Assembly: GCA_000004985.1 (NCBI GenBank)
Contig: GG738887.1
Direction: 5' to 3' (one strand)
Length of the DNA: 64,000 nucleotides
Source of the DNA: Naegleria gruberi
Lineage: Eukaryota
Position 1 is the first letter of the stretch; the number at the start of each line of letters is the position of its first letter. The translations under genes and the position numbers were made by a program. This document shows positions 22,056-64,000 of the stretch, in pieces. A model generated the notes under the pieces. That model saw only the letters and a list, made by a program, of their open reading frames with translations, was not told the DNA's origin and did not search any database.

Positions 22056-24867
22056 TTACTTGACTGAAGAGTAGGTGTTGATTTTTCCATCAAAGGAACA
22101 GCTCAATAAAGTAGTAGAATTTTTAAATTTAACATCAGAAACAACATCTGAATGATATCCAATAATTTTCTCAATGCACTTTTCAGATGTTGTCAAATCA
22201 TAAAGGTACACACATCGATCTTCACTTCCACAAGCAATGTATCGCATACAAGGGCTTATAGCATTTCCAATGGAATGGATCGAATTCTTATGTTGACTAT
22301 ATCTTCTAATTGGATCTTGTTGCCTTGCATCCCACAGCTTTACACATCCATCAACGGAGGAAGTAAGGAAAAAGTTGATCGAATCGCTAGTGGCATTCGG
22401 AGAATTATTTAGAGAAATGGTATGAATTGGTCTTTCATGGGCATTTTCAATTGATCTTACTACTGTATCTTTGCAAACGTCATAAATCTCCAAAGTTTTA
22501 CTAGAATATCCAAGTAAAATATAATTTGACAAGTAGGAATTTGGACATGTTAGGGCTGTAATCTTTTGGGCCTGTCTGCTTTCGAAAACATGACCAAGTT
22601 TGTACTTGTGATTATCTACTTGTCTGTTTAAGAATCAATTGATTAGATGAGTAAATATGATATTAAACATACTTTTTCAAATACTTTTCATCAGAGTTTG
22701 TACTCTTGTGAATATAGTACTTGTAAATATACATCTTATTAGAGCTCGAAAGGACGGTAAATCTATCTTGATGGAAGAAACTTGCATTATTTACACTCGA
22801 TTTGAAAATTTGCTCTGGTCTCTTGTTTTCCTCAGAGGTTGTACTCTTAATATTTCCCAAAATACTCTTAAAATTAATAGCTGGTTCAATTCCATTCTTT
22901 CCATTTTTCCAAATTGTTGCCGTATTGTCAGAGCTTGATGTTAAAATTAATTTTGATGAGAGTGTCCAATTGATTGAATTGACAGCAACAGAATGTTTCT
23001 CAAGTGGTACTCCCTTGTTCTTGTTTGATAGAGGAAGTTTAGAAAGCATGCAGAGCCCAGAATTAGATCCTGTTACAATAGATTCCTTATTGGGGGAAAT
23101 AGACATGCATAGAATTGGAGAGTTGTGAACTCGGAGCTCTGATGAAAGATTAATTGGAGGTTTTTCAAAACTCGGAGTGACAAGTTCTTTGGTCGTTGTT
23201 GTTTTCTTAATTGTAGATGAGGTAGATGATGAGGAAGAGGAGGTGGGTTTTTTCTTCAAGTGAGCAGGAACAAATGGTGCTTCTGAATAACCTGAAGATT
23301 TGATTCTTGTGGAAAAAGTTGATGGCTTGTCAACAAGTGCTTTGGTCTTTTTCTGAGGTGTTGGAGTAACCTTAACTAGTGTTCCTCTCAAATAATTGGG
23401 CAGTTCATCTGTATGAGTCATGGAAATGACGTCTCCTTCAATTTTAGTCTGCTTTGGTTTTAGGATGGAATCTGGAATTTCATTCTTCCTCTCGATGGTC
23501 ATAGATTGATGGTTAATATCCATGACATAGATATATGGTTGAAAGGCACTAGCTGCCACCAAACGTGTACTACATTCCTCAATGAATTGTGCATCAAAAG
23601 AGTGAAACAAGTCCTTGCATTGGTCTGTCACGTTTGCAATATCATACATTCTCTCAATCTCAAAAGATGACAGATCAATATCAACAGCCAATGATTTGGA
23701 GCATATCATTACATAGTCATTGTCATTCTTCGAAAAGAAATTCATCTTGGATGCACAATGTGAATACTCACATAGAGTCAGCTCTTGAGAATCTTCCTCA
23801 GTATCGAATTGTTTTTGAATGAAATTATGTTGCTGTCTCCAAATTGGCTCACTACTAATGACTTCAAATGAGGGTATTGGAGATTTCTCCTCTGGCTTGA
23901 TGAACTTTTTAATCTTCTTGTTGAGGTCAAATTCGTGAAGCAGTTTCACCCAAAGGCACTTTAAACTCTCATCATTTTTCGTCTCGTATATTTGAACTAT
24001 TCCATTACTAAAACCAATCATGAATCTATTCACGCCATATTCCTCACAAACTGAAATAATTGGATACGGTGAGAGAACTCCTGATTTGTACAATACTTTC
24101 CTCTCATAAATATCCCATATCTTAATTACAATAGAAACTTTCAATCAGAATTATCAAATATTGAACACACAAACCTTAAAAGTTCTATCTTCGGAAACAC
24201 TAATGATACAATGTTGTAAATGTCTCAAAAACAAAACCTCAGTCACGGGAGATTGATGCCCCTCCAAGCTCAGTATCACCTTTGCCAGTTCTATATGATA
24301 AATTAATATAGAATCTTCCAATCCAATATACAACAATTCATCGTTATCGCTAAACTTTACAAATGAAACATTTCCAACATTTGATCCAATCACCACTCCA
24401 TCATCCTGAAATCCATCCCGATATGCAAGAACATTCCACAACTTTACACAAGAACTGGATGCTGAACATAACATTTCAGATTTTCGATTTCCAAAGCAAA
24501 CACAACTAATCGGATCTTCCTTTTCATGAGGCAGTATCACAATTGGCTCCAAATCATCATCTATAACAGGTGTCAATACAAGGGCTGCCTCATCCACCTC
24601 GTCGTCATCCCCCAATTCTTGTTTGATTCTTGTATTATTTGATTTTCTGATAACATCATTGCTTCCACTACTACAACCCGATAACATGACATTCCAAATC
24701 AATACTTTTCCTGTCGATTCACCTCCAGCCACCAACATTTGAGAGGAAGTAGACCTCGAAATGGCCACACTCGTAATGTTTGTTCTCGGAGTTGATCCTT
24801 TCAGTATGCTTACTAATTGATGTTTCTTCATTTTTTTAAAGTTGTAGAATGGGTATGGAGGGAACAT
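22056..24867 (-). CDS. WD40-repeat protein, about 902 aa, 3 exons; complement(join(22056..22623,22673..24120,24175..24867))
   Basis: Intron 1 has a GTTTGT donor after ...DRTFK and a ttaag acceptor, giving ...DRTFK|IWDIYERK (54 nt, phase 0). Intron 2 has a GTATGT donor after ...YLK(aa) and an aaacag acceptor, giving ...YLKKQVDNHKYKLGHVFESRQAQKITALTCPNSYLSNYILLGYSSK (49 nt, phase 2). WD signatures include GKVLIWNV, IKIWDI, CVKLWDAR and DRCVYLYDL. Confidence 0.65.
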
Positions 24868-25095
24868 ATAATTTCATAATACAACAATCATTTATGGGGA
24901 TTGGTGATGAATTTGCTGGACTATCATGAATTATCATGTATTGAGATGATTAATACACATTGAGAGTTGACAATATCGGAATAACATGATATAATAATTA
25001 TTGTTTTTTTAATAAAATTAACAAAATTTGAAATTAAATTTCTACTACTACATATACTATTATTCGATTAATCCTAAAATTTGTTGTGATAGCAC

Positions 25096-25770
25096 TTAAT
25101 CAGACTTTTGCTTTTGATTGGCCAAATCAACAATTTGGTTATTAGCATACATATAGACAACATATGGCAAAGCAGTAGGAATGAGAGACAAGATGAAGAA
25201 GACGATCCAATCACCAACGTGGGAAGCGTGCTTTCTATCATATTCAGCTTGAGTCATGACTGGAATAGCTGGCAAAACGTTACTCTTAGAGATGAGCTTC
25301 AATGACTTTTCGTCCTTTTCAGCAGCTGGAGCCAATCTGTAAGTGGCCAAAGCATGTTGAGTATTAATTTCACCAACACTCTTTGGAACAATAGTATACT
25401 TGTAAGAGACACGGTCATTTGGAGCAACCTTTTCAAAACTAGCCTTGGTTTCACCTTCAGCAAGTTCGAATTGAGCTTCTGGCCATTCATTGTCCTTAAC
25501 ATCAATATCATAAGCAGTTTCTTCACCAACATTGATAACAGTGATCGTGAAAGTAATATTAGTATTGACGATTGGTTCGGCTGGAGAAACACTCTTGTGG
25601 AGGAAAAGTCTTACATTGTTTTGTTGAGTTGTTGTTGTTGTGGTAGTAGATGTTTCATCGACAGGGGTGGCTGTAATGTCTTCATCTTGAGCCAAAACAG
25701 ATGTTATTGTGCACAAGGCGAACAAAATGGCCAAAATAACGGCGAGAGAGAATTTCAAAGACTTGTTCAT
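25096..25770 (-). CDS. Translocon-associated protein subunit beta (TRAP-beta/SSR-beta) homolog, 224 aa
   Basis: It has a signal peptide, a lumenal domain (LFLHKSVSPAEPIVNTNITFTITVINVGEETAYDIDVKDNEWP), a C-terminal TM and a short tail (GDWIVFFILSLIPTALPYVVYMY). Length and layout match my recall of SSR2. Confidence 0.7.
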   Translation of the reverse strand: MNKSLKFSLAVILAILFALCTITSVLAQDEDITATPVDETSTTTTTTTQQNNVRLFLHKSVSPAEPIVNTNITFTITVINVGEETAYDIDVKDNEWPEAQFELAEGETKASFEKVAPNDRVSYKYTIVPKSVGEINTQHALATYRLAPAAEKDEKSLKLISKSNVLPAIPVMTQAEYDRKHASHVGDWIVFFILSLIPTALPYVVYMYANNQIVDLANQKQKSD

Positions 25771-26109
25771 TTTTTTTTAAAAAAGACCTGCTGATGATCA
25801 TGCAGTCAAGCTACAGAGCAATGCTGTGAGGTGTGAAATTGTAAACGCAGCAAGTCTTTCAGCTGAAAAAACGCACGTCATGCTCACAAGCTGGCTTGCG
25901 AACAAAAAAATCATGACAACATAATTCTTCGACTCACAATGATAATCATATAAGGATGATTGGATAGGATACCAATAATGGATTGAAAACAAGGATATCT
26001 AGGAATATACAAGTATTACAGGATAATAATATTATTATTGGACAAGTACTTCCGAAGTGATGAAAAAGAATAAAAATCAAAGATTATAATTTCATGTGTT
26101 TATCAAAAT

Positions 26110-28236
26110 TTAAAAGCTCTTCAAAGAGGATTCCATCAAGTTTTGCAATCTATTGACCATTGATCTTGGATCATCCAATAAACCGGCACTGATGAGAGCA
26201 TTATCAAAGATTTGTTCAGCAACAAGCTTGGCCAAATCTGGATTAGCTGACTTGGCATTGAAGAGTTTCATGATGAGTGGATGGCGAGGATTGATTTCAA
26301 CTTGTTGTGGAGAGAGGGCAATATCTTGATTTTGCAATTTACGAATCATTCTGAGGGAGGCATTTTCTGGATTCTTAATGACAGCTGGAGTTGTTGAGAG
26401 ACGCTTAGAGATCTTGGCAGATGAAACCTTATCCTTCAATGAGGTTTGGAACCATTCACACAATTCCTTAGATTGAATTTCAGAGAGTTCATTTTCACCA
26501 GATGTCTTGTCAGCTTCATCATCTTCCAATTCAGCTCTATCAATGGCCTTAGTTTCCTTACCATTGAAATAACCAATTGAACCAAAGACAAAGTCATCAG
26601 GTCCATCATAACCGAACAAGACTTCGATACCCTTCTTCTTGAAAACTTCAAAGTATGGAGAGTTTTCGGCATATTCTCTAGTTGGAGCAATGAGGTAGTA
26701 AATTGTCTTTTGTTCAGTTCCCATTCTGTTAATATATTCTTCCAATGTTGTCTTTTCACCCTTTGGTAAGGCAGATGATTCGTACATGAGCAATTTGGCA
26801 GCTTCATCCTTATACATGTAATCAGTGACAACACCTTCCTTAATGAACTTGTTGAACTTTTCATAGAAACTAATGTACTTTTCACGATCTTGCTTCATCA
26901 TGTCATTGAAGAATTTGGTAATTCTCTTAACGAGGACAGATTTAATCTTTTGAATGAGTGGAGAATCTTGCAAGTGTTCTCTGGAAATGTTCAATGGTAA
27001 ATCTTCAGAGTCAACAACACCCTTCAAGAATCTCAACCAATCTGGGAGAATATCTGGATGCTTGGCACGAATCAAAACTCTTCTACTGTGAACATTGACA
27101 CCAGGTTCCATCTTACCCATACCCAATGATTCAGTGTGGTGATCTGGGACGTAGAACAAGGCATTCATATTCAATGGAATATCCAAGTTAAAGTGGAGAA
27201 TATAGAGTGGGTTTCCACCATAGTGTGAAAGATACTTGTAGAATTCTTGATGTTCTTCAGCAGTGACAGAGTTCTTGCTCTTCAACCAGACAGCATCAAG
27301 AGTATTGACCTTGGCACCGTTCAAAATGATTGGATAAGAGACAAAGTTACTGTACTTTTGAATAATCTTTTGAACAGTATCCTTGAAAGAGAATTCCTTT
27401 TCATTCTTCTTCAAATAAATGACAATCTTTGTACCTCTGGCAACTCCTTCAGCTTCGGAAATTGTGTAATTTCCTTCACCAGTACTTTCCCAACAATATC
27501 CAGGTTGACCTTTGATAGCAGATCTAGTATAAATACGGACCTTATCAGCAACCATGAATGTACTGTAAAAACCAACACCAAATTGACCAATAATGTTGGA
27601 TGTAGCTTCACCCTTATCGGAAGCTTCCTTAAGTTGTTTAACAAAGGCACGAGAACCACTGTGAGCAATAGTACCAATATTCTTGATTAATTCTTCCTTG
27701 GACATACCAATACCAGAGTCTTGAATGACGAAAATATTATTCTTATCATCACAAGAAATTTGGACAGATAATTCCTTTGAAGGATCATCAACCTTGTCTG
27801 GTGAAACTTGATTCATTCTTCTAACCTTTTCCAAAGCATCGGAAGCATTTGAAATTAATTCTCTGATGAAGACTTCCTTGTCAGTATAGAGAGCAGAAGC
27901 AACAATGTGTAAAAGTTGTTTAGTTTCAGTTTCAAAAGTCTTATTTTCCTTGGCACCAACAATGTGTTCAGTTTCTCTAATAATATTTTCTTCCTTGAGT
28001 TCATTGACTTCGGCATCCTCAAAAACATCATCATCAATAACATCCTTCTTTTCATTTCTAACAAATAGTTGTGATGAGAAATTAGCAATCAATTGTTGTT
28101 GTTGTTGATATGATGAACAAGAATTCTTTGAAAGAACGGAAGAAGAAGATGGCAATGCTGATGATGAACATCTCACAGCAGCAGAACGCTTTGAGACGAG
28201 CGAACGGACGATTTTACCAGAGTTTCTGCTCAACAT
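26110..28236 (-). CDS. trap1: TRAP1, mitochondrial Hsp90-family chaperone (about 708 aa)
   Basis: Hsp90 N-domain motifs are present: ETKQLLHIVASALYTDKEVFIRELISNASDALEK, IGQFGVGFYSTFMVADKV and GTIAHSG. The S/R-rich N-terminal presequence fits a mitochondrial paralog. Start aaaaaaaaATG at 28236 (the track adds 5 codons from an alternative start). Confidence 0.88.
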   Translation of the reverse strand: MLSRNSGKIVRSLVSKRSAAVRCSSSALPSSSSVLSKNSCSSYQQQQQLIANFSSQLFVRNEKKDVIDDDVFEDAEVNELKEENIIRETEHIVGAKENKTFETETKQLLHIVASALYTDKEVFIRELISNASDALEKVRRMNQVSPDKVDDPSKELSVQISCDDKNNIFVIQDSGIGMSKEELIKNIGTIAHSGSRAFVKQLKEASDKGEATSNIIGQFGVGFYSTFMVADKVRIYTRSAIKGQPGYCWESTGEGNYTISEAEGVARGTKIVIYLKKNEKEFSFKDTVQKIIQKYSNFVSYPIILNGAKVNTLDAVWLKSKNSVTAEEHQEFYKYLSHYGGNPLYILHFNLDIPLNMNALFYVPDHHTESLGMGKMEPGVNVHSRRVLIRAKHPDILPDWLRFLKGVVDSEDLPLNISREHLQDSPLIQKIKSVLVKRITKFFNDMMKQDREKYISFYEKFNKFIKEGVVTDYMYKDEAAKLLMYESSALPKGEKTTLEEYINRMGTEQKTIYYLIAPTREYAENSPYFEVFKKKGIEVLFGYDGPDDFVFGSIGYFNGKETKAIDRAELEDDEADKTSGENELSEIQSKELCEWFQTSLKDKVSSAKISKRLSTTPAVIKNPENASLRMIRKLQNQDIALSPQQVEINPRHPLIMKLFNAKSANPDLAKLVAEQIFDNALISAGLLDDPRSMVNRLQNLMESSLKSF

Positions 28237-28981
28237 TTTTTTTTCAATCAAAAACTGAAGCTATTGATTGAAGATGGAACGGAAAGTGTTGTGCTTCCGA
28301 TCCAGAGCCATGTTTGCTTTCTTAATTGCTATTAAATGGAATAAGAAATTCCGATTAGTATTAATGAAAGTAGGTTGGGATTTTAAATTGATTGAGGGAG
28401 GTTGAATGATATATTTATTTGCTACTGATTGAGGAAGCACAGTTAGAAAACAATAGAGTTCTTCCTTAATATAATCAGTAACATTGAAAAGATACTATTG
28501 TTAATTCAAACAAGGAACATAAATTTCAAAGCTCAACTGAAACATCCTTTTAGTTAAATGAAGTTATTGCTAAGTGAGGTCTTCAACTTGAAATGAGATA
28601 TATTGTGTGGGTTTAACATAAAGGAATGGTTTCATTATCTTCCCCATGATCTGGAGATTATTCAATAGACCTGTTAAAGAGATCAAATCTCCATAATAAG
28701 ATCCAGAATCTTAAAGATGAAAATTCCGCTTCCTATCCAGATTTTCCGCACAACCACACAATCACAATCTTTGTTATCATTCTCACCTCAGCAGAAGTAA
28801 CAACAAATCATCAACTGTACCTCAGCAGTAACAAGAAAAACCATTTGAAAAAAAAATTGTTTAAGGTCGTGCTCGTCATTATTGTGCATGAAGAAAGTGG
28901 CCATTGTATTGTCATGTTGGTGGCTCTTGTTCATCGCTTGGAATTGCATGCACGAGTGGCTAGTATGGAAGATAACTGTTC

Positions 28982-29338
28982 ATGGCCAGCAACTCGTTGT
29001 ACCAAGGTTTGAATGTTCGTGATGCTAATGGTCGTGTGATACGTTCATTGGGACCTGAGACTGCAGTTACTGTCTATGGTATTATGGTTAAGGATGGAGG
29101 AAGATGGGCAAAGATTGGAACCAATGAATATGTTTCTGCTGATTATTTAAAAATGTCATGTGGATGTGGTGGAGGATACAATAATCAAGATCCAACACTA
29201 CCAGATAAGCTTCAATCACCCAAGCAAAAACTGGTGTACCGCCACTGGTTTCAGTCTGTGTTAACTTTTCCGCCACTTACTTCGGATACATCCCAACATC
29301 AGTCCGCCACAGGCAATAAGCAAGAATCGCTACACTAG
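28982..29338 (+). CDS. ORF with a bacterial-type SH3 (SH3b/SH3_3-like) domain followed by a CGCGGGY motif; 3' part may be read-through or a pseudogene
   Basis: LNVRDANGRVIRSLGPETAVTVYGIMVKDGGRWAKIGTNEYVSADYL fits the SH3b pattern (NVRSGP....G....V......GW.K......GWV...YL). The segment is GC-richer than the surrounding spacer. A signal-peptide-like ORF (MKKVAIVLSCWWLLFIAWNC, ATG 28888) lies just upstream in another frame. Confidence 0.4.
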   Translation: MASNSLYQGLNVRDANGRVIRSLGPETAVTVYGIMVKDGGRWAKIGTNEYVSADYLKMSCGCGGGYNNQDPTLPDKLQSPKQKLVYRHWFQSVLTFPPLTSDTSQHQSATGNKQESLH

Positions 29339-29999
29339 TTTTTAATATGACATTTCAATCAAAAAATCAAATGGTTTATTACATATTGACATGTGACATT
29401 AATCCAAACAAGATTATTTCAACATTCAAAATTCAATCAATAATTGAATGAAATTTATCTCATTTGTAAATAAACAATCGTTTCCCAGTAGCAACATAAC
29501 AATATCCAGTTATTTCATCAATTGTTAATCCAATAATGTCACTACCAACGACTTTCGAATTGATTTTTTTGCATTTGCTAGAAAGTTGAATGAAAGACAC
29601 AGAGAAGGTTATAAGAAATGGGGTGGTAAGTATCGTATGTATTTATTCGTGAATTTTTTGTTCGATTCCATACGAATTGTTTCAATTTTGCAAAGTATGA
29701 TAATATTTAGACTCCAATTTGATTGAATCAAAATTCTCGAACTTCATTGTAAAACAAATCCTATGTACTTGAAGAAAATCTCAAAAAAGAAAGTATTATT
29801 TCAGAAATTGGACATTTTGGATTTCCCATTTTGTTGATTTACCATTTAAGTAGGTTGAGTTAGACCAATTTAAACAAATCAATGTGAAACTATACCCAAT
29901 CAAAAACAATCAAAACAAATTGATATAATTCAATCACGCTTTTCAAACTAACTTTCCAATCAACTTATCAACTCTCCAACTCTAACTCTATACGAAACC

Positions 30000-30449
30000 A
30001 TGAAAAAGATACTCTTCATAGTCCTTGTATGCATCTTGGCTGCTCTCTTCTTGAATGCTGATAAGGCAGATGGTCAATTGACATACAGCTATCGTTATGC
30101 CTACAGCTACCCTTCCACCTATGGTTACTCATATCCATCTAGTTACGGATACGGCTATCCTTCAACCTATGGTTACTCATATCCATATAGTTACGGATAT
30201 GGCTACCCTTCAACCTACGGATACGGCTACCCTTCAACCTACGGATACTCATATCCATCCTCCTATAGCTATCGTTACGCCTACAGCTACCCTTCCACCT
30301 ATGGTTACTCATATCCTTATAGTTACGGATACGGCTACCCTTCCACCTATGGTTACTCATATCCATCTAGTTATTCTTATGGTTATCCTTACTCATATGG
30401 TGGCTATGGATATCCTTCTTCATATGCTTATTCATACAGATATTGGTAA
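30000..30449 (+). CDS. Secreted Tyr/Gly/Ser/Pro-rich repeat protein (149 aa): signal peptide plus about 20 tandem Y(G/S)Y(S/G)YPS(T/S) units
   Basis: The start is accATGAAAAAG. The hydrophobic leader is MKKILFIVLVCILAALFLNA. The mature region is almost entirely YGYSYPSSYGYGYPSTYGYSYPYSYGYGYPSTYGYGYPS... with a higher-order duplication of a roughly 70-aa block; it ends ...YAYSYRYW. Confidence 0.65.
   Translation: MKKILFIVLVCILAALFLNADKADGQLTYSYRYAYSYPSTYGYSYPSSYGYGYPSTYGYSYPYSYGYGYPSTYGYGYPSTYGYSYPSSYSYRYAYSYPSTYGYSYPYSYGYGYPSTYGYSYPSSYSYGYPYSYGGYGYPSSYAYSYRYW
30067..30440 (+). repeat. 18/21-nt coding minisatellite (tatggttactcatatccatctagttacgga-type units) underlying the Y-rich protein
   Basis: A direct tandem repetition of tacggatacggctacccttcaacc / tatggttactcatatcca units is visible across the whole block. 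Confidence 0.8.
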
Positions 30450-30810
30450 GAAATCAATTAATTGTAAATCTATAATAAAAATGTAACACTTTGAAAGAGT
30501 TTATTGTAATTTTGATGGAAAGAACCACCCAAAACATCACCAATCAAACTAAAATCACTTGAGAAAGCTTGGCATCTGTTACGAAGGAGTCCTTTAGAAA
30601 TCAAATCAGTTTTTCCATGACTCAATCGAGAATGAAGTATTTGTTGAAAACGAAACTGTTCCGAAGAGACTGAGAAGGAAAGAACACATACGTGTGAAAA
30701 ACAACTGACACCAAAAGGTCAAAACACTTCATTGCAAGACAGGAACAGTTTTGATGAAACAAATTAACAATTTTTGTAAATTTAATAAAAATGTTTATTT
30801 ACAACACAAT

Positions 30811-31110
30811 TTATGGAAATAGATCAATTTCTTCTTCGTCTTCCAATTCCAAATAACAATGATTGAATATTTCATTCAGATCTTCTTCAGTCTCATTCAC
30901 TGCCAAATGGAAATCTTTAAACGCCTCTCTAATTTGGTGTTCCCTCTCCTCTTCTGATAAATCATATTCTGCATGATCTGAACAACTTTCAATCTTTTGT
31001 TTTTTACTCAAATCATTTAGAGGAGTGGGTGAATCCTTTCTCTTATTGTGATCTTGAGTTTTTCTTAGTACTTTTCGATTGGGAGTTTTGGAAGGTGTTA
31101 ATTGAAGCAT
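30811..31110 (-). CDS. Small acidic hypothetical protein (99 aa)
   Basis: ORF with start gaaaATG and an acidic C-terminus (LELEDEEEIDLFP). No recognisable domain. Confidence 0.35.
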   Translation of the reverse strand: MLQLTPSKTPNRKVLRKTQDHNKRKDSPTPLNDLSKKQKIESCSDHAEYDLSEEEREHQIREAFKDFHLAVNETEEDLNEIFNHCYLELEDEEEIDLFP

Positions 31111-31209
31111 TTTCTTTTGTAGAGTTGTGATTAGTTTTAATGTTTGAAAGGTGGGTTTCGAATCATGTTAATTGATTTCAACTGGTTTATTTTTACCAAT
31201 TCCTCCTCA

Positions 31210-31881
31210 CTATTTTTTCTCTATTAAGGCATCAATGACCAAATTAACAGAATCTTGCAAGATTTTTCTCAATTTCTTCAATTTTTCATAATCCAATGTC
31301 TTGATTTCTTCTTCTGTGAAGGTTGCTCTTTGCATGACATCCGAAACCATCTCCTCTTGTTGTTCACAATCACTTTGAATTGAGGTCAGCAATGTTTTTA
31401 CCATTTCCCATCGCTTATTCATTGACAATTCCACACCCGAATCATTTTCCATCATTTTACAATTTGGTGGTGATGAGAATGATGATGTTGGTGGAACTGT
31501 TGTTGTGCCATGTTGAATGGTTGAAGTATTATCTACCAATGATTTGAATAATTGTTGCTCACCACCATCACGACTCGATTTTTCATTCAAAGTTGTGTTT
31601 TTTGCTAAATCTCCTTGATGATCAGCTTGATGTGATGTAGCCACTGCAATTTCGGAAGCAGTTTCCTTTTGTCTTTTCAAGCTCGGTTCAAGATTTTGCT
31701 CCTCTTGTTCATCATTTTCTTCTTCAATTTCATCAATTTCATCAATTTCATCATCATTTTGTTCATCAATTTGTTCCTCTTCATCCTCATCATCGTTTTG
31801 TGAGCAATCCCTGAATTCATTGTAGGATATCTTTCTCTTTTCACGTAATTGGTACGGTGATGACTTTGAAGTGGACGACAT
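31210..31881 (-). CDS. Acidic hypothetical protein (223 aa) with a DEIDEIDEIEEENDEQEEQ tract
   Basis: ORF with start aaaaaaATG and a low-complexity acidic N-terminal half. It has its own stop and start, separate from the 99-aa ORF downstream. Confidence 0.4.
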   Translation of the reverse strand: MSSTSKSSPYQLREKRKISYNEFRDCSQNDDEDEEEQIDEQNDDEIDEIDEIEEENDEQEEQNLEPSLKRQKETASEIAVATSHQADHQGDLAKNTTLNEKSSRDGGEQQLFKSLVDNTSTIQHGTTTVPPTSSFSSPPNCKMMENDSGVELSMNKRWEMVKTLLTSIQSDCEQQEEMVSDVMQRATFTEEEIKTLDYEKLKKLRKILQDSVNLVIDALIEKK

Positions 31882-32054
31882 TTTTTTATTGTGTGTGAAT
31901 TTGAGCTCTTGTCCATGTCATCATCGACAAGTGAGCGAGGAAAGGTTAAATAACTTAGGACAGATCTCATTGTATTCTTATGTCGTTGTAACGAAACTAT
32001 TTCCTTGTTGTTTCTTCTTGCAAGAAGTTTTGTTGAAATGATTATGAAGTACTT

Positions 32055-33080
32055 TTATTTGAAAAATGATAATTGATGATTGACTTGATCACAAACGATA
32101 AGTTCACCACTCTTTCTGTTAAGGCAACATCCCTGTGGATATTGCAATTTTTTGTTTGTGCATTTGGCATTCAAGTTGGAAATTAGTGTGAAATTTTGGT
32201 CAATTGAAAGGACGAAGATTTCACAACTAAAATGTTCAATGATAAAGAGCTGATTACTTGATTCATCAATTTCTAATCCTCTAAACTTGTTTCTTGGTTG
32301 ATTAAATGGATGAGGTAGTAATTGACAGGAGCTGTCGTCAATCAAGAATAATCTGCCACATCTACAATCATTAACTATCATTCTTTCACTGTTCGGGAGC
32401 ATCAATGCATAACACGGTTCAATTAATAACCCATTATTAAACGTTGGCGTTTTGGGTCCAAAGTTAATTTCCTTAAATGGCTCTCCGTTTATGGAATGCA
32501 CAAATAAAATTCTATATTTGGAAGGATCACAAAGAATAATTACATTCTCATCTCTGCTCTTTCCATATTTAAGACTCATCCCAATCTGGCATCCAAAATG
32601 ATCCCAATCATCATCTCCAAATTCATTAGCAGTTCCAGAAATCCAAATTAATTTCAATCTTGAATTGAGAATTTCCAATAAATCCAATTTGTAAACACAA
32701 TAATCATCACAGGAAACAAGAATTGCATCTTGTGATCTTCCACATCCATTCCTTTCCACTAGAACGTTTTCAACCATTTTTGGAAATATTGCACTTGTTA
32801 AATATTTCAAATTTTGGAGGGAAAAAATCTGAACTCTATGGTTCATGCTATCTGAAACTAGAATGCAATTATGATTGTAGGATATATCAACATTGTTTGG
32901 ACAATCGAATTGAGTTTCTTCTCCTCCACAAACTTGATATTCGCCTAATTCTCTTATCAACTGAAAATTTAATGAAAATGGAATTGTGTCGTCTTGTTGG
33001 TTTTGAAACTTTTTCTTAAGCAAAGGGCTTGAAAAGTTGCAATCGAGAGCAACGACAACAGACTGATCATGTTGATTCAT
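32055..33080 (-). CDS. NHL-repeat beta-propeller protein (about 341 aa), paralog of 13677..14882
   Basis: DSMNHRVQIFSL and CDQVNHQLSFFK are NHL blades, and the C-terminus mirrors DENNHSIKIFK of the other paralog. ATG at 33080 (aaaaATGAATCAACAT); the track start is a TTG. Confidence 0.6.
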   Translation of the reverse strand: MNQHDQSVVVALDCNFSSPLLKKKFQNQQDDTIPFSLNFQLIRELGEYQVCGGEETQFDCPNNVDISYNHNCILVSDSMNHRVQIFSLQNLKYLTSAIFPKMVENVLVERNGCGRSQDAILVSCDDYCVYKLDLLEILNSRLKLIWISGTANEFGDDDWDHFGCQIGMSLKYGKSRDENVIILCDPSKYRILFVHSINGEPFKEINFGPKTPTFNNGLLIEPCYALMLPNSERMIVNDCRCGRLFLIDDSSCQLLPHPFNQPRNKFRGLEIDESSNQLFIIEHFSCEIFVLSIDQNFTLISNLNAKCTNKKLQYPQGCCLNRKSGELIVCDQVNHQLSFFK

Positions 33081-33371
33081 TTTTAATTCTTTCAAATTGT
33101 TTCGAATAGTTGAATTTGAAACTTCTTATATTTGGAATTTGAAGGTTACCTTCAATTTGAACATTTTTGAGTTTGAATTCAAAGCAGTAACACCCAATAC
33201 AACAGTTTACAACCAATCTACAACATGTTAGAATTTCTTCATTTCAACCCATCTTCGGATGCACTTTTCGACATTTTTCCTTATCCTCACCAAGATTTTT
33301 AAACTAATCTCTGTGAAACATTTAAAACAGATGAGCCCAGCACCAAATCCTCTTCAAATCAAATCAAAAAA

Positions 33372-34322
33372 ATGTCTTCAGTTATCGTTCTTGGAGCTAA
33401 TGGTTATATTGGCATTGGTGTTTCCCAATCTTTACAGAGAAATGGTTTTTCAGTGTATGGCACTGTTCGATCAGAAAAACATGAGAAATTCCTGTTGGCG
33501 AATGAAATTACTCCACTCGTCATTCCAAAAGTTACATCCTTGTTTAGTGATGAGAAATTTGGCAAGATTTTGGAAAGGACAAGTGCAATTATTGATTGTA
33601 TTGGGCTGACTGATGAAACTGACAAGATTGTGCAATTGGTGAAGGAACATTCTGCTGACAGATTGAAAAGGAAACTTTCCAAGTTGGTTTTCGTATTTAC
33701 TAGTGGAATTATGACTTATGGAAAGGCCTCTGCTGAACTATTCCTGGATGAGAATGTGAGACCAGAGCCAACTCATGCATGGGTTGAGAAGAGAAGAGAT
33801 GTTGAATATGAATTATTGAATGGAGAGTTTACCCATTTGGATACTGTTGTAATTCGTCCTGGTTTCGTATATGGTAAGAGTGGTGGTGAAATTTTCAAAG
33901 ATTTTTTCAATCCAAAAATTACTTCAGATGGTAAATTGACAATTATTGGATCTCCTAAAAAGAGATGGAGTTGGGTTCATGTAGATGATTTAGGAGAAGC
34001 CTATACTAAGGTTCTAACAGTTGGACGAAACTTAGTTTCTGGTCAATTGTTCAACATTGCAAATCCAAATGATTATCCAACCTATGATCGTGTCAGAATT
34101 GAAATTGCCAAACAAACTGGATGGCAACCAAACTCTGAGAATGAAACTGATTCACTTCTTATTGAGCCAGTTCCACAAGAAAATGCTGGATTGGTTGTTT
34201 GGGAGAATACAGTGATGATTAATCCGAGAAAGGCCATTGAAGTATTGGGTTGGAATCCAAAACATTTGAATTTTATTGAAAAGATTCATGTTTATTATCA
34301 ATCATGGAAGAATTCTCAATAA
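33372..34322 (+). CDS. NAD(P)-binding Rossmann-fold protein, NmrA-like / atypical short-chain reductase (316 aa)
   Basis: The N-terminal dinucleotide-binding motif is VIVLGANGYIGIGV. Size and spacing are typical of the NmrA/epimerase family. The start is aaaaaaATG. Confidence 0.6.
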   Translation: MSSVIVLGANGYIGIGVSQSLQRNGFSVYGTVRSEKHEKFLLANEITPLVIPKVTSLFSDEKFGKILERTSAIIDCIGLTDETDKIVQLVKEHSADRLKRKLSKLVFVFTSGIMTYGKASAELFLDENVRPEPTHAWVEKRRDVEYELLNGEFTHLDTVVIRPGFVYGKSGGEIFKDFFNPKITSDGKLTIIGSPKKRWSWVHVDDLGEAYTKVLTVGRNLVSGQLFNIANPNDYPTYDRVRIEIAKQTGWQPNSENETDSLLIEPVPQENAGLVVWENTVMINPRKAIEVLGWNPKHLNFIEKIHVYYQSWKNSQ

Positions 34323-34678
34323 AATTGATTCAATTTTTGTGATTATTTGAAGTAACGGTAAATTTGGAGGGAAATTAAAAAAATTGAAAAACAATTAATT
34401 CGCATCACCAACATCACGTGTTATAATATTAATATTATTGGAAGATATTAATTTCTATCATGCTTCTAACATGGAACACACTGTGTTCGGAATGACAATT
34501 TGACGTCGACTGAAAGGAAGATATGCAAGAAGAATAATTTTCTTCTATTTGAAATGGTCGGTGCTGCTAACGGAGGCTAAGTCGAACAACACAACTCTCA
34601 ATTAGAAGTAGAAAGTAATGAGTAATATTTGTACATTCTTTCGAAACATATATACTCAGTAGAAACAAAAGAAAACAA

Positions 34679-37600
34679 ATGAATATGAGGATTCTTCTCT
34701 TCCTTCTCTTATTGGCACTTCTCTCCCCAAGTATTTCCTCCACCTCATCATCATCATCATCATCAACACTCCTTAATCGCATGTGTAGTAGTGATGATAG
34801 AGCTCCCTCTTTCAATCAGAGAGATTTGTGTTCAGCATCAAATAATTCAATGATTACTCCCTCCTGGTGCACTCGTCATAATCCATTCTCTTCGGTTCCT
34901 TATTTATTTAGTGATAATAACTTTCCGAGTTGGTTAAATGTTGAGGATGGAGCCATTTGTAATACGGCCAATCCCTACGTGTTCAGTTTTATTAATGGAA
35001 CAATTAGATATTCTGCTCCGTATGCTCTCGATGGAAATGCACAAGTATTGCCATCATCATCTTCATCTTCATTGAGTTATTCTGCAATGATTTCACCAAG
35101 AGACAAGTGTAGATTTATATCAAAGATTAATACGATTGAGTTTAGTGGTGAATTTGGATTCAATAGTAGTACTACGATTGAAGCTAAGAGATATCTGGTT
35201 TTGGGATTAGTTTCTGGACAAATTATTCTAATGAATTTCAATAAGGATGATGAGATTTACTTGTTGGGAAATACTGAAGATAAGACAAATATTAGAACAT
35301 TGGAAACTTTGACAAATGGTACTGATTTATATGTTTCGACTGTTTCATTTGGTAATTCAGTTTCTCTATTTTATGGAAATTCTTCAAATATTGCTTCTAT
35401 TCAACGTTGTGGAAACATTTTACAATTTGAATCGAGAAATCAATTTCCACCAGATGTCAAATTAATTACTCACGATGGAAAAATATACGCCTCTCTCATT
35501 GTTTACAATAGTACCGAAATGTGCTATTTCATTTACTTTTATCAACTAGATGGTTGCTCATTCACAAAACAATTCCAGTACAAGGTTAAGGAAAAGTGGG
35601 AATCTAATCTGAAATTCAAAATTTCCACTCAAGTTGGTGGATTTGACAATGTTCTCACCACTAACAATTTTGTATATTCGAGAACTATACTCCAATTCTC
35701 CACAAGAAAACATGTGAAAATCATTGAAATGACCACACAAGATATTGAAATGGATCTGAGTACCAATGACAATTCCACATTTTATGTTGCCACTGATGAG
35801 GAAGAAATTACAGCATCTACCATAGCATATGAATACATTAGAAGGATTGACTTTACAAAATCCTCATGCGCCAAAATTTATGCCAACCCAGCTCAAGGTG
35901 CAAACTTGATTCTTTCACTCAAGAGGAGAAATAGCAATTATTTGAAAGCAAGAAATTTATTAGAGTTTGGAAATTATCCATTCTATAGATATTCGAATAG
36001 AACTTATAATAATCCTGTTGGAAGAACAGTTGAGTGCAATGTTGCTGATGGTACATTTTATGATGCTTTAACACAGAGTTGTACTCATGCTTTTGAGGTA
36101 GAGAATGTGATTGGAGACATTTCTATTGGAGAAGAAATTCAAGAGCTTTCGAGTAGATTCCATGATGCTCCACTCAATTATTCACAATACTTTGAAGTTG
36201 ATTTGACTGAAAAACTTGACACCAAAGATATTTGTAATAATATTGCTCAATTTCCAGCACTTGCTTCCTTATGTGAAGAAAATTTAAATCAAACAGAGTG
36301 TGCATTTGATGCATTTACCATGTTTGGAAACAAGTTCCTTCCTAAAATATTAGCAGATTTTTGGGTAAATCAAATTTACATTTCTAAAACTGGAAAGGAG
36401 GTTTTGGTTTATGGTTTACAACAAGAAATGTGTTCACTCAATGGTCTTTATATGGACAATTATAATACGATTAGTTTAATGGGAGAATCTACATATATGG
36501 ATATCACAAGGAATGCTCAACACATGTTTGTAACAGTGTCCAGAGAACGATGGGAGTTACAATCCCTTACCAGATTTTACAATATTTGTAAACAATTAGA
36601 AGTAGATCCAGAAGATCCATTTTTGAAACCATTTGCTGAGCAATGTAAGGCAAATACACCTTCTCCAGTCACTCTTAATCAATTTGGACAATACACCTCA
36701 AGTTGTTTCAGTGGAATGAGTTGCCCATCTCTAAAACATGTGGAAATTGATATTATACCTGAAGGATTTTACACAACCAGACCAAATGTTGTCAAAGAAT
36801 GTGAGGAAAAATACTTTTGCTTACAGGGTGTGAGACAGCCATGTCCAATTGGATTTTATTGCCCAAACAAGGGAATGACTAAACCATTGCCATGTAAATT
36901 CTCCACTTCACATAATTTACACAAACGAGGTCTTTCATGGGAGGAACCAAAGGGATCAGATACTTGCTACTCACAAGCCAACAGTTTACCTCAACCTTGT
37001 TTGAATGGTACTCTATGTATTACACCTTATTTTCCACCTATTCCTATTTCTCCTGGTCTTTATTTGGAAGGAAACAAGATTAAAGAATGTCAATTGGGAG
37101 ATTATTGTAATTTGGGAAGATATATAGGTGAAAATCAAAATAGCTCAATATTGGCATGTCCTGAAAACACCTATTGTGAAGAACCCTCTACAATGGAACC
37201 TTCATTGTGTATTCCAGATGAAAAGTTATCATTATATTGCCCACCTGGAACTACATTCAGAAGACCATGTAATAAGGGATTCTATTGCCCAAAGCCAAGT
37301 GTTGAAGTTCCTTGTAAATTGACTCAATATTGTGAGGAGGGATCCTATATTCCTGAAACATGTCCAGCTGGTTATTACTGTCCATCACCATCTGAGAAGT
37401 TGATTTGTCCAAAGGGATTTTATTGTGTTGTTGGCAGTGTTTATCCTACCAATTGTCCGACATTTAGTATTTGTCCAGAGGGAACTAAGGCCTATGAAGA
37501 TTATGCTCTTGGTGTCTTGATTGACATTTTAATTATCATGGGAGTAATTTTGACATTTAAAATTTATTCGTGGACTTCTAATTGTTATATTCGATATAAG

Positions 37601-39954: not shown

Positions 39955-41070
39955 ATGAAGATATTCATTCTGCTACTAGTGCTGACAACAGTTGTCATTC
40001 ATGGCCAAACAACATCGGTTCATGATTGGGAGAAGAAACAAAATATGCTCACCAAGAGAAGTGACCTTTCGGCTCAAACTATTGGAAACTTGATTTATTT
40101 GACTGGTGGATGTACTTCTAATCAACCAATAGCAAAAGATGCCACTTGTCCATCAATCACCAATTCAATGGAAATTTACAATCCACAAACTAATTCATTT
40201 ACTTTTGGAAAAGCAATGCCTAGGCCAAGATATAGACACACTACTGTTGCTATTCAAAATAGATATTTATTTGTGATTGGTGGAAGAGATTTGAATGAGA
40301 ATATTATTACCCAAGTGGATGTATTCGATACTGTTAATGGAAACTGGACGATACATAATGCTACGTTGACTTCTGACTGTTGTTCTGACTCTATTGCTTT
40401 CGTATTGAAGGATAGCAATGGAAATGAGAATATTTACTTACCTGGTGGATATTACGCCAATTACACAACCTCAGGAAAAGTTTTACAGTTGACTACCAAA
40501 AATGGAGTTTATTCTGGAACATTCCAATCAGGTTTAGTTTCAGATATGAATGTCAAAAGAGGTGATTCCATGACATTAACCTATAATAATAAGGCCTATG
40601 TAATTGGTGGATTTTTGGAAGATAATTTTTGTAAACCAATTACAACTGTGGAAGTATACGATTCCTCAACTAATAAGTGGACAATTACATCACCACTTTC
40701 ACATGAGAGAGCTGATGGTGCTGCTATCATGGTTGGTTCTGCATTATTTGTTTTGGGAGGAGAATCTAAGGATAAATCATGTAATGTTTCATTACCTGTC
40801 AGTGATGTTGAGAAATTTGACACTGCTAGCGGGAAATGGAGTGATTTTGTGGCTCTTCCAACAGCTCGTTTTAGACAAACTGGTGAAATTGTCAACAATG
40901 TCATGTATGTGTTTGGTGGACAAATTGAAATTGAGATAGCTCAGCAATATTCAGTTTTGGATTGGACCTATGCTTACAATTTCACAGATTTTGTAAAGAT
41001 TTCTGCAGCCAACTCGCAAATAATTTCATGGATATTTGTTTTCTCATTACTTTTCATTCTAGTAGTATAA
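39955..41070 (+). CDS. Secreted Kelch-repeat beta-propeller protein with a C-terminal hydrophobic (GPI-anchor-like) tail (371 aa)
   Basis: It has a signal peptide, Kelch-type blades (YLTGGC, RYLFVIGGRD, AYVIGGF, LFVLGGES, MYVFGGQ) and a C-terminal IISWIFVFSLLFILVV. Confidence 0.6.
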   Translation: MKIFILLLVLTTVVIHGQTTSVHDWEKKQNMLTKRSDLSAQTIGNLIYLTGGCTSNQPIAKDATCPSITNSMEIYNPQTNSFTFGKAMPRPRYRHTTVAIQNRYLFVIGGRDLNENIITQVDVFDTVNGNWTIHNATLTSDCCSDSIAFVLKDSNGNENIYLPGGYYANYTTSGKVLQLTTKNGVYSGTFQSGLVSDMNVKRGDSMTLTYNNKAYVIGGFLEDNFCKPITTVEVYDSSTNKWTITSPLSHERADGAAIMVGSALFVLGGESKDKSCNVSLPVSDVEKFDTASGKWSDFVALPTARFRQTGEIVNNVMYVFGGQIEIEIAQQYSVLDWTYAYNFTDFVKISAANSQIISWIFVFSLLFILVV

Positions 41071-62364: not shown

Positions 62365-64000
62365 NNNNNNNNNNNNNNNNNNNNNNNNNNNNNNNNNNNN
62401 NNNNNNNNNNNNNNNNNNNNNNNNNNNNNNNNNNNNNNNNNNNNNNNNNNNNNNNNNNNNNNNNNNNNNNNNNNNNNNNNNNNNNNNNNNNNNNNNNNNN
62501 NNNNNNNNNNNNNNNNNNNNNNNNNNNNNNNNNNNNNNNNNNNNNNNNNNNNNNNNNNNNNNNNNNNNNNNNNNNNNNNNNNNNNNNNNNNNNNNNNNNN
62601 NNNNNNNNNNNNNNNNNNNNNNNNNNNNNNNNNNNNNNNNNNNNNNNNNNNNNNNNNNNNNNNNNNNNNNNNNNNNNNNNNNNNNNNNNNNNNNNNNNNN
62701 NNNNNNNNNNNNNNNNNNNNNNNNNNNNNNNNNNNNNNNNNNNNNNNNNNNNNNNNNNNNNNNNNNNNNNNNNNNNNNNNNNNNNNNNNNNNNNNNNNNN
62801 NNNNNNNNNNNNNNNNNNNNNNNNNNNNNNNNNNNNNNNNNNNNNNNNNNNNNNNNNNNNNNNNNNNNNNNNNNNNNNNNNNNNNNNNNNNNNNNNNNNN
62901 NNNNNNNNNNNNNNNNNNNNNNNNNNNNNNNNNNNNNNNNNNNNNNNNNNNNNNNNNNNNNNNNNNNNNNNNNNNNNNNNNNNNNNNNNNNNNNNNNNNN
63001 NNNNNNNNNNNNNNNNNNNNNNNNNNNNNNNNNNNNNNNNNNNNNNNNNNNNNNNNNNNNNNNNNNNNNNNNNNNNNNNNNNNNNNNNNNNNNNNNNNNN
63101 NNNNNNNNNNNNNNNNNNNNNNNNNNNNNNNNNNNNNNNNNNNNNNNNNNNNNNNNNNNNNNNNNNNNNNNNNNNNNNNNNNNNNNNNNNNNNNNNNNNN
63201 NNNNNNNNNNNNNNNNNNNNNNNNNNNNNNNNNNNNNNNNNNNNNNNNNNNNNNNNNNNNNNNNNNNNNNNNNNNNNNNNNNNNNNNNNNNNNNNNNNNN
63301 NNNNNNNNNNNNNNNNNNNNNNNNNNNNNNNNNNNNNNNNNNNNNNNNNNNNNNNNNNNNNNNNNNNNNNNNNNNNNNNNNNNNNNNNNNNNNNNNNNNN
63401 NNNNNNNNNNNNNNNNNNNNNNNNNNNNNNNNNNNNNNNNNNNNNNNNNNNNNNNNNNNNNNNNNNNNNNNNNNNNNNNNNNNNNNNNNNNNNNNNNNNN
63501 NNNNNNNNNNNNNNNNNNNNNNNNNNNNNNNNNNNNNNNNNNNNNNNNNNNNNNNNNNNNNNNNNNNNNNNNNNNNNNNNNNNNNNNNNNNNNNNNNNNN
63601 NNNNNNNNNNNNNNNNNNNNNNNNNNNNNNNNNNNNNNNNNNNNNNNNNNNNNNNNNNNNNNNNNNNNNNNNNNNNNNNNNNNNNNNNNNNNNNNNNNNN
63701 NNNNNNNNNNNNNNNNNNNNNNNNNNNNNNNNNNNNNNNNNNNNNNNNNNNNNNNNNNNNNNNNNNNNNNNNNNNNNNNNNNNNNNNNNNNNNNNNNNNN
63801 NNNNNNNNNNNNNNNNNNNNNNNNNNNNNNNNNNNNNNNNNNNNNNNNNNNNNNNNNNNNNNNNNNNNNNNNNNNNNNNNNNNNNNNNNNNNNNNNNNNN
63901 NNNNNNNNNNNNNNNNNNNNNNNNNNNNNNNNNNNNNNNNNNNNNNNNNNNNNNNNNNNNNNNNNNNNNNNNNNNNNNNNNNNNNNNNNNNNNNNNNNNN
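62365..64000. other. Assembly gap / unsequenced to the end of the window (1636 N)
   Basis: Run of n characters from 62365 to the window end. Confidence 1.

Follow-up and report, generated by a model that had tools for sequence, protein, structure and literature searches.

Analysis of a 64-kb window of the Naegleria gruberi NEG-M genome, the window being the whole stretch of DNA examined, identified an open reading frame (ORF) on the plus strand, at 30000..30449, that runs without interruption over 149 codons and is very probably a genuine, lineage-restricted coding gene whose product is secreted. The precursor translation begins MKKILFIVLVCILAALFLNADKADGQ and continues as a run composed almost wholly of Tyr, Ser, Gly, Pro, and Thr residues ending in ...YSYRYW; its distinguishing design is a Tyr content of about 41%, in alternating positions, along the entire mature chain. 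We tentatively propose that this orphan protein is a self-associating or cross-linkable structural protein, for which a place in the cyst-wall or pore-plug matrix would be the most likely role. A first-pass annotation of the same DNA had described a secreted Tyr-rich repeat protein and suggested looking for dityrosine in spore or stalk walls; the coding frame, the predicted signal peptide, and the Tyr-rich repeat of that description hold up, the repeat being predicted to be disordered, but the organism forms cysts and not spores or stalks.

RESULTS

A single-exon ORF with a predicted signal peptide

The features of the locus are collected in Table 1. A stop codon in the same frame lies at 29949-29951, 16 codons 5' of the ATG, and an AATAAA hexamer that may serve as a polyadenylation signal is found 25 nt 3' of the TAA. 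We considered whether the upstream SH3-like gene could include the ORF as one of its exons; this was ruled out by its own ATG, its own signal peptide, and the upstream in-frame stop.

By inspection, the N terminus has the n/h/c layout of a signal peptide, with MKK followed by an unbroken 15-residue hydrophobic core and then the polar stretch NADKADG. A single-sequence AlphaFold model placed residues 2-28 in a helix (pLDDT of ~90). The six frames of the 64-kb window hold 106 ORFs that start with ATG and span 60 amino acids (aa) or more, and only 2 of them have a hydrophobic N-terminal run of at least 12 residues: the Tyr-rich gene and TRAP-beta, a genuine endoplasmic reticulum (ER) protein. The layout, the predicted helix, and this rarity together support the signal peptide proposed in the first-pass annotation. 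We infer that cleavage would occur after G24 (A-D-G/Q) or A19 (L-N-A/D), both sites having small residues at positions -3 and -1. The protein has no C-terminal hydrophobic segment, so a glycosylphosphatidylinositol (GPI) or membrane anchor is not expected, and the possibility of a GPI- or membrane-anchored protein was ruled out for this reason.

Table 1. Features of the Tyr-rich gene and its surroundings in the 64-kb window
Feature	Coordinates	Strand	Description	Basis
Tyr-rich protein precursor CDS	30000..30449	+	Complete, single exon	149 codons + TAA
Predicted signal peptide	30000..30071	+	Residues 1-24, MKKILFIVLVCILAALFLNADKADG	n/h/c layout, AlphaFold helix, rarity among window ORFs
Mature region (predicted)	30072..30446	+	~125 aa, ~14.7 kDa, calculated pI ~8.6	Composition, motif counts, pLDDT
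Canonical Y-x-Y-x-Y-P-x-x units	30096..30395	+	12 units, 24 nt each, residues 33-132	Codon-by-codon unit alignment
Higher-order duplication, copy 1	30084..30210	+	180-nt offset	90% identical to 30264-30390
Higher-order duplication, copy 2	30264..30390	+		90% identical to 30084-30210
AATAAA hexamer	30474..30479	+	Candidate polyadenylation signal	Sequence reading; putative function
Rival +2-frame ORF	30097..30486	+	129 aa, starts MPTATLPPMVTH	Judged non-coding repeat by-product

Composition and repeat architecture of the mature region

Residues 27-149 contain 50 Tyr residues in 123 positions (40.7%), in agreement with the earlier estimate of more than 40% for the mature protein, followed by Ser (22.8%), Gly (13.8%), Pro (10.6%), and Thr (5.7%); the share of Tyr in the whole precursor is 33.6%. 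Past residue 24, Cys, Lys, Asp, and Glu are all missing and Arg occurs three times. The net charge is about +3, and no segment is amphipathic. Tyr occurs at nearly every second position, the spacing from one Tyr to the next being two residues in 38 cases and four residues in 10. Motif counts gave 38 overlapping Y-x-Y, 17 [G/S]Y[G/S], and 13 YP[S/Y][S/T], one GGY, and neither SPP nor pairs of Lys/Arg residues. None of the frames of the 64-kb window contains another Tyr-rich stretch. In the AlphaFold model, residues 34-149 had pLDDT values below 50 and lacked secondary structure or a fold, and the mature region is predicted to be disordered.

The array is built from the octapeptide Y-[G/A/S]-Y-[S/G]-Y-P-[S/Y]-[S/T], with a period of 8 residues or 24 nt and a 48-nt double unit; Tandem Repeats Finder recovered the periods of 24 and 48 nt across 30102-30373. 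The array has a single break, YSYR at residues 89-92, and degenerate units at both ends. The motif had been recognized correctly as a Tyr-rich repeat of the YGYSYPS type; the count of about 20 hexa- or heptapeptides gives way to 12 clean octapeptides with degenerate ends. The nested duplication noted earlier is present within the array, its copies being 127 nt long and 90% identical. To judge from this one internal duplication, the array may still be evolving.

Substitution patterns support one coding frame

The repeat is free of stops in several frames, so the length of an ORF is by itself no evidence of coding. As the first-pass annotation had pointed out, the rival ORF at 30097..30486 is open in the +2 frame; two minus-strand ORFs are open there as well. 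We compared the repeat units and the large duplicates with one another. Among the 12 aligned units, mean entropy was 0.32 bits at the first codon position, 0.44 bits at the second, and 1.15 bits at the third, and all-against-all comparison counted 76, 121, and 295 differences, respectively. At one and the same position of the unit, Ser is specified by TCN codons in some copies and by AGY codons in others; switches between these families with Ser kept would be difficult to account for unless the amino acid were under selection.

The large duplicates were compared over the first 43 in-register codons of each copy. In frame +1, eight codon differences are synonymous and four are non-synonymous; in the rival frame of 30097, none is synonymous and 12 are non-synonymous; and the remaining four frames gave ratios of synonymous to non-synonymous differences of 2:10, 0:12, 0:12, and 6:6. 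Codon log-odds scores, trained on 16 long ORFs of the window, reached +10 bits in frame +1 only, the other five frames scoring between -31 and -230 bits (-40 bits for the rival frame of 30097). The rival ORF also lacks a signal peptide. These patterns support coding in frame 30000..30449 over the alternative at 30097..30486, the substitution comparison having been made on the internal duplicates rather than on relatives; the rival ORF and the two minus-strand ORFs are by-products of the stop-free repeat. The refutation that the first-pass annotation had named, conservation of a different reading frame, is not borne out for the rival ORF by these internal copies.

The GC content and codon usage of the Tyr-rich gene match those of the host window. 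Its share of C-ending codons (35.6%) is the highest among 33 window ORFs, the others ranging from 9 to 21%; this would fit high expression if such codons were preferred, which is suggestive only, the measure being uncalibrated and the repeat copies not independent of one another. A caution on the coding evidence is that variation at third positions in the repeat is mostly between TAT and TAC and could partly reflect transition bias.

Searches for relatives

No homologue was found in a word-indexed search of 5.8 billion proteins or in an exhaustive phmmer search of 1.84 billion representatives, both of which returned only look-alikes with period-8 or Tyr/Gly low-complexity sequence. Exact look-ups of the Tyr-rich ORF and the rival-frame ORFs gave no match. 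No Pfam-A family was matched at an E value of 0.01 or below and no PDB sequence at an E value of 1 or below, and Rfam gave only sub-threshold matches, located outside the Tyr-rich ORF. Peptide patterns and a degenerate DNA pattern for the signal peptide, run against JGI metagenome and viral contigs, retrieved only unrelated bacterial signal peptides.

The look-alikes fell into two kinds, proteins with period-8 repeats whose composition is unrelated and proteins with short arrays of Y/G/P/S; several are small secreted bacterial proteins (P0002, P0003, P0005, P0006, and P0090). One of these, P0005, carries four copies of YGYGYPSS, ends in RRYW (compared with YRYW in the Naegleria protein), and is encoded on a contig of 59% GC with bacterial genes around it. 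The bacterial matches are short and compositional, with E values of 1e-4 to 1e-6 after bias correction, and the signal peptides do not align; we read the resemblance as probable convergence of low-complexity sequence.

Proteins of N. fowleri and Willaertia magna were present in the searched libraries, and none of them resembles the Tyr-rich protein. Similar Y/G/S arrays, which the first-pass annotation had proposed to seek in related genomes, were thus not seen among N. fowleri and Willaertia proteins or, as described below, at the syntenic loci. Since no orthologue was seen among these proteins or at the syntenic place, conservation, the strongest functional test, is missing.

Genomic neighborhood, annotation, and synteny

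The neighboring genes encode TRAP1, TRAP-beta, an SH3-like protein, an NHL protein, an epimerase, and an ABC transporter; the bacterial-type SH3 domain of the flanking gene is a weak match (E = 7e-4). No genes for wall synthesis or oxidative cross-linking were found in the 64-kb neighborhood. Four annotated N. gruberi proteins are identical to ORFs of the window: XP_002673929 (NAEGRDRAFT_70989) at 28982-29338, XP_002674013 (NAEGRDRAFT_70992) at 32058-33080, XP_002673931 (NAEGRDRAFT_70993) at 33372-34319, and XP_002673933 (NAEGRDRAFT_70995) at 39955-41067. Neither of the two protein libraries, which include the remainder of the N. gruberi proteome, contains the frame +1 product; in a control, the score to be expected was 273 bits for a self-match and 180 bits for a truncated model. 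GenBank numbering on this scaffold runs strand by strand (EFC41184, 85, 87, 89, and 93-95 on the plus strand; EFC41263, 69, 70, and 73 on the minus strand), and this separate numbering implies one plus-strand model, EFC41186, between 29338 and 32055, which would correspond to XP_002673930.1 (UniProt D2VPU5 or D2VPU6; locus tag NAEGRDRAFT_70990 or NAEGRDRAFT_70991). The Tyr-rich ORF is the sole substantial plus-strand ORF in the same interval.

The block of TRAP1/HSP90, TRAP-beta, and WD40 genes is kept in N. fowleri, W. magna, and a metagenomic heterolobosean (loci L004, L007, and L008, respectively), and the genes directly upstream of HSP90 differ in all three. At these syntenic loci, the nearest 10 kb contain no Tyr-rich ORF, and the syntenic position in N. 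fowleri holds the orthologue of the window gene at 56653-59508. When the epimerase gene was taken as the anchor, the search retrieved N. gruberi paralogues and a contig of the N. fowleri type that is not syntenic; no N. fowleri locus in synteny was found. In another strain resembling N. gruberi (ENA ERZ929261; 97-98% DNA identity), contigs end at 28492 and 30976, bracketing the gene. The segment from 28.5 to 31.0 kb, which contains the SH3-like and Tyr-rich genes, looks lineage-specific.

DISCUSSION

A candidate matrix protein of the cyst wall

To our knowledge, the cyst is the only walled structure of N. gruberi, which does not form spores or stalks; because it is the only walled stage, a cyst-wall (or pore-plug) matrix appears the most likely setting for a secreted structural protein of this kind. 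In the mechanism that we envisage, the precursor would enter the secretory pathway through its cleavable N-terminal signal peptide, and the released product would be a slightly basic, predicted-disordered chain of ~125 residues (~15 kDa) without Cys, Lys, or acidic residues. Each octad, (Y-x)3-P-x-x, would present a stretch with Tyr at alternate positions, followed by a Pro-Ser/Thr break. Outside the cell, the dense, exposed phenol rings (38 Y-x-Y motifs) might cause the chains to stick to each other and to polysaccharide by stacking and hydrogen bonds, and di- or tri-tyrosine or 3,4-dihydroxyphenylalanine (DOPA) cross-links, driven by a peroxidase or oxidase, might then convert them into an insoluble matrix. 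The mature chain has no residues for disulfide or lysine-based cross-links.

Tyr cross-linking is established for extensins, resilin, and eggshell proteins. For the Naegleria protein, the cross-linking idea is plausible by analogy, resting on coccidian oocyst-wall proteins (PMC4776368) together with general knowledge. A literature search found no link between Naegleria, including its cyst walls, and Tyr-rich proteins or dityrosine, nor did it turn up an account of any protein that forms part of the wall of a Naegleria cyst.

In Naegleria, the genus to which the pathogen N. fowleri belongs, the cyst is the stage that is resistant and tolerates disinfectants. A protein that is secreted and has ~41% Tyr would be a concrete candidate for a cross-linked wall matrix and would also exemplify the de novo rise of such materials from short repeats. 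No N. fowleri counterpart was found, and the immediate importance of the protein is probably limited. The locus may in addition mark a blind spot of annotation, the frame +1 product being missing where the rest of the N. gruberi proteome is present. One could go further and speculate that this is the first identified Naegleria cyst-wall protein, its alternating-Tyr strands zipped into a dityrosine network, and that it arose when a 24-nt unit expanded recently in the N. gruberi lineage and so came to share, by convergence, the bacterial YGYGYPSS octad; we regard the whole of that scenario as unlikely.

Relation to known Tyr-rich materials

The wall proteins of coccidian oocysts and sporocysts have a signal peptide, are intrinsically disordered, and contain Tyr/Ser-rich regions; in Eimeria they are cross-linked by peroxidase through dityrosine/DOPA (PMC4776368). 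The Naegleria protein resembles coccidian GAM56, GAM82, EtSWP1, and the Tyr-rich oocyst proteins of Toxoplasma in its predicted signal peptide, predicted disorder, and richness in Tyr and Ser, and, like the coccidians, Naegleria is a protist that builds an environmentally resistant wall. However, there is no sequence similarity between them, and no apicomplexan homologue was matched. The coccidian proteins are also larger, with the Tyr-rich part limited to one region and processed out, whereas in Naegleria an octapeptide array with ~41% Tyr makes up the whole mature chain.

Plant extensins and other cell-wall hydroxyproline/tyrosine-rich glycoproteins (HRGPs) are secreted, repetitive structural proteins and carry Y-x-Y motifs, which serve in extensins as sites of isodityrosine and higher cross-links; the Naegleria protein is similarly repetitive and predicted to be secreted, has 38 such motifs, and has Pro followed by Ser/Thr, which could be modified. 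It differs from extensins in having no SPP, one Pro per unit, many-fold more Tyr, and no Lys or His, and identity as an extensin was ruled out, since Ser-(Pro)3-5 blocks are absent (no SPP).

Several animal Tyr/Gly-rich extracellular materials are hardened by dityrosine or DOPA chemistry. Schistosome eggshell proteins, insect chorion proteins and resilin, mussel foot proteins, and the nematode NLP/CNC proteins are secreted and share with the Naegleria protein, itself predicted to be secreted, a repetitive, Gly/Tyr/Ser-rich sequence. There is nevertheless no homology to these materials, and the Naegleria mature chain lacks Lys, which is prominent in mussel and eggshell proteins. The protein is therefore best regarded as a functional analogue of the coccidian, plant, and animal Tyr-rich wall and glue proteins, and as a member of none of these families. 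A ribosomally synthesized and post-translationally modified peptide (RiPP) precursor of the fungal/plant ustiloxin type, with repeated core peptides that contain Tyr, was considered separately and ruled out, as there are no Kex2-type KR sites in the protein and no modifying enzymes nearby.

Alternative readings

It is possible, if doubtful, that the protein acts in trophozoites and not in the cyst wall, as a non-covalent adhesive or a hydrogel- or coacervate-forming protein used for attachment, for a trail, or for prey capture. Reversible aromatic self-association would then be driven by the [G/S]Y[G/S] and Y-x-Y motifs, as in FUS-type domains and in Tyr/DOPA-rich animal glues. FUS low-complexity domains self-associate through aromatic contacts, and the Naegleria protein shares with FUS-family domains dense [G/S]Y[G/S] motifs (17 copies), predicted disorder, and an expected aromatic self-association. 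FUS-family domains are intracellular and attached to RNA-binding modules, however, whereas the Naegleria protein has a predicted signal peptide and no other domain, and Tyr is found at every second residue in the latter compared with every fifth to eighth in the former. The 17 [G/S]Y[G/S] and 38 Y-x-Y motifs, the predicted disorder, and the predicted signal peptide all suit a secreted adhesive, as does the absence of Cys and Lys, which leaves other cross-linking chemistries without residues. The literature search found no such secreted Naegleria glue, and sequence alone does not tell an adhesive from a wall protein.

We consider it improbable that the ORF is instead evolutionarily young or effectively functionless, with no selected protein product, a stop-free 24-nt minisatellite that expanded beside a chance ATG and a hydrophobic leader. 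Such an origin would be in keeping with several findings: the ORF is an orphan with no homologue in any searched set, its segment is non-syntenic in N. fowleri, Willaertia, and the metagenomic relative, three further frames are open across the repeat, and the frame +1 product is missing from libraries in which the annotated N. gruberi proteome is included. However, differences among the units and between the duplicates concentrate at the synonymous sites of one frame only, Ser is kept across the TCN and AGY families, and the codon score is positive in frame +1 only. Also counting against such an origin are a textbook in-frame signal peptide, of a kind seen in 2 of the 106 ORFs, and an AATAAA hexamer 25 nt past the stop.

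By analogy with the Gly/Tyr-rich NLP/CNC peptides of nematodes, an antibacterial or defense effector was also considered, since the product is small, predicted to be secreted, and Gly/Tyr-rich in an organism that feeds on bacteria, and since the adjoining gene has a bacterial-type SH3 domain, albeit a weak match (E = 7e-4). This role seems very unlikely: unlike the NLP/CNC proteins, the Naegleria protein has no YGGYG units and no dibasic processing sites (no K/R pairs); GGY occurs in it just once, its net charge is about +3, and it lacks an amphipathic segment. The product is, moreover, long and uniformly repetitive and not a set of short peptides.

The last alternative concerns ancestry and not function, namely that the gene is a domesticated copy of a bacterial gene for a signal peptide and YGYPS array. 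Proteins P0005, P0090, and P0002 combine a signal peptide with a short Y-G-Y-x-Y-P-S array, as does the Naegleria protein, and P0005 shares with it the exact octad YGYGYPSS and the R-Y-W end (RRYW compared with YRYW); P0003 and P0006 are further look-alikes, the SH3 domain of the flanking gene is of bacterial type, and the segment appears lineage-specific. The bacterial YGYPS proteins, which are uncharacterized, differ in having four to six units only, extra non-repeat domains, and high-GC contexts. Acquisition from bacteria is very improbable in our view: the matches are short and compositional (1e-4 to 1e-6 after bias correction) with unaligned signal peptides, convergence of low-complexity sequence is common and no phylogeny is possible, and the GC content and codon usage of the Tyr-rich gene fit those of the host window.

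Annotation and codon usage of the Tyr-rich locus

In the tyrosine-rich gene (ORF 30000-30449, frame +1), the share of C-ending codons was 35.6%, the highest among 33 ORFs of the window compared with 9 to 21% elsewhere, and TAC made up 48% of its Tyr codons, against 27% in 16 long reference ORFs from the window pooled. The frame +1 product was not found in protein libraries that hold neighboring N. gruberi proteins. GenBank numbers the plus-strand genes (EFC41184-95) and the minus-strand genes (EFC41263-73) in separate series, which implies that one of the annotated models on the plus strand, EFC41186.1 (tagged 70990 or 70991), lies within window positions 29338-32055; the Tyr-rich locus may have been modeled in another frame.

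Two large protein-library searches with the Tyr-rich product matched small secreted bacterial proteins, among them P0005 and P0090, whose arrays closely resemble its own. This likeness between bacterial and Naegleria arrays is probably the result of convergence.

Upstream of the Tyr-rich gene lies the SH3-like gene NAEGRDRAFT_70989, and immediately 5' of it an ORF starting at 28888 (+), in a different frame, opens with a signal-peptide-like sequence (MKKVAIVLSCWWLLFIAWNC...). This arrangement, together with the weak SH3_3 match of NAEGRDRAFT_70989, suggests that an exon was missed or that a frameshift is present within 28888-29338 (+), and that a secreted SH3b-like protein may be encoded beside the Tyr-rich gene.

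The segment in related genomes

Willaertia magna, N. fowleri, and a heterolobosean relative from a metagenome all keep the gene order HSP90(TRAP1)-TRAPbeta-WD40, and each of the three diverges immediately upstream of HSP90 (window positions 28252-31000). At this place N. fowleri carries the ortholog of the window gene at 56653-59508. A second N. gruberi-like genome, with 97.4 to 97.9% identity to the window, was present in the metagenome assembly ENA ERZ929261 (run ERR1078381); contig ends of this assembly (L001 and L045) flank, on both sides, the segment carrying the SH3-like and Tyr-rich genes.

Features of the window and of matching sequences
Feature	Position	Strand	Remarks
C/D-box snoRNA-like match	28106-28163	+	archaeal sR2 model; 28.5 bits, below gathering score of 42
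NAEGRDRAFT_70989	28982-29338	+	'predicted protein', 118 aa; weak bacterial-type SH3_3 match, E = 7e-4
Two acidic low-complexity ORFs	30811-31881	-	99 and 223 aa; tail-to-tail with Tyr-rich gene
NAD-dependent epimerase-like gene	33372-34322	+	
Run of N	62366-64000		last 1.6 kb; assembly gap or padding
L001 (ERZ929261 contig)	24295-28492		
L045 (ERZ929261 contig)	30976-37569		
P0005 (bacterial)	L003 8001-8375		YGYGYPSS x4; C-terminal end RRYW
P0090 (bacterial)			YGYSYPS heptads

Other features of the window

The acidic low-complexity ORFs had no Pfam match, and on the related strain's contig they are called as separate products, one of 220 aa and the other partial, at 45 aa. The sub-threshold snoRNA-like match falls within the HSP90 coding region and is probably due to chance. 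The epimerase-like gene shares 80% and 61% identity with two N. gruberi paralogs, which lie on other scaffolds, and its next-best named relatives are found in bdelloid rotifers (Rotaria, ~39% identity), not in other heteroloboseans.
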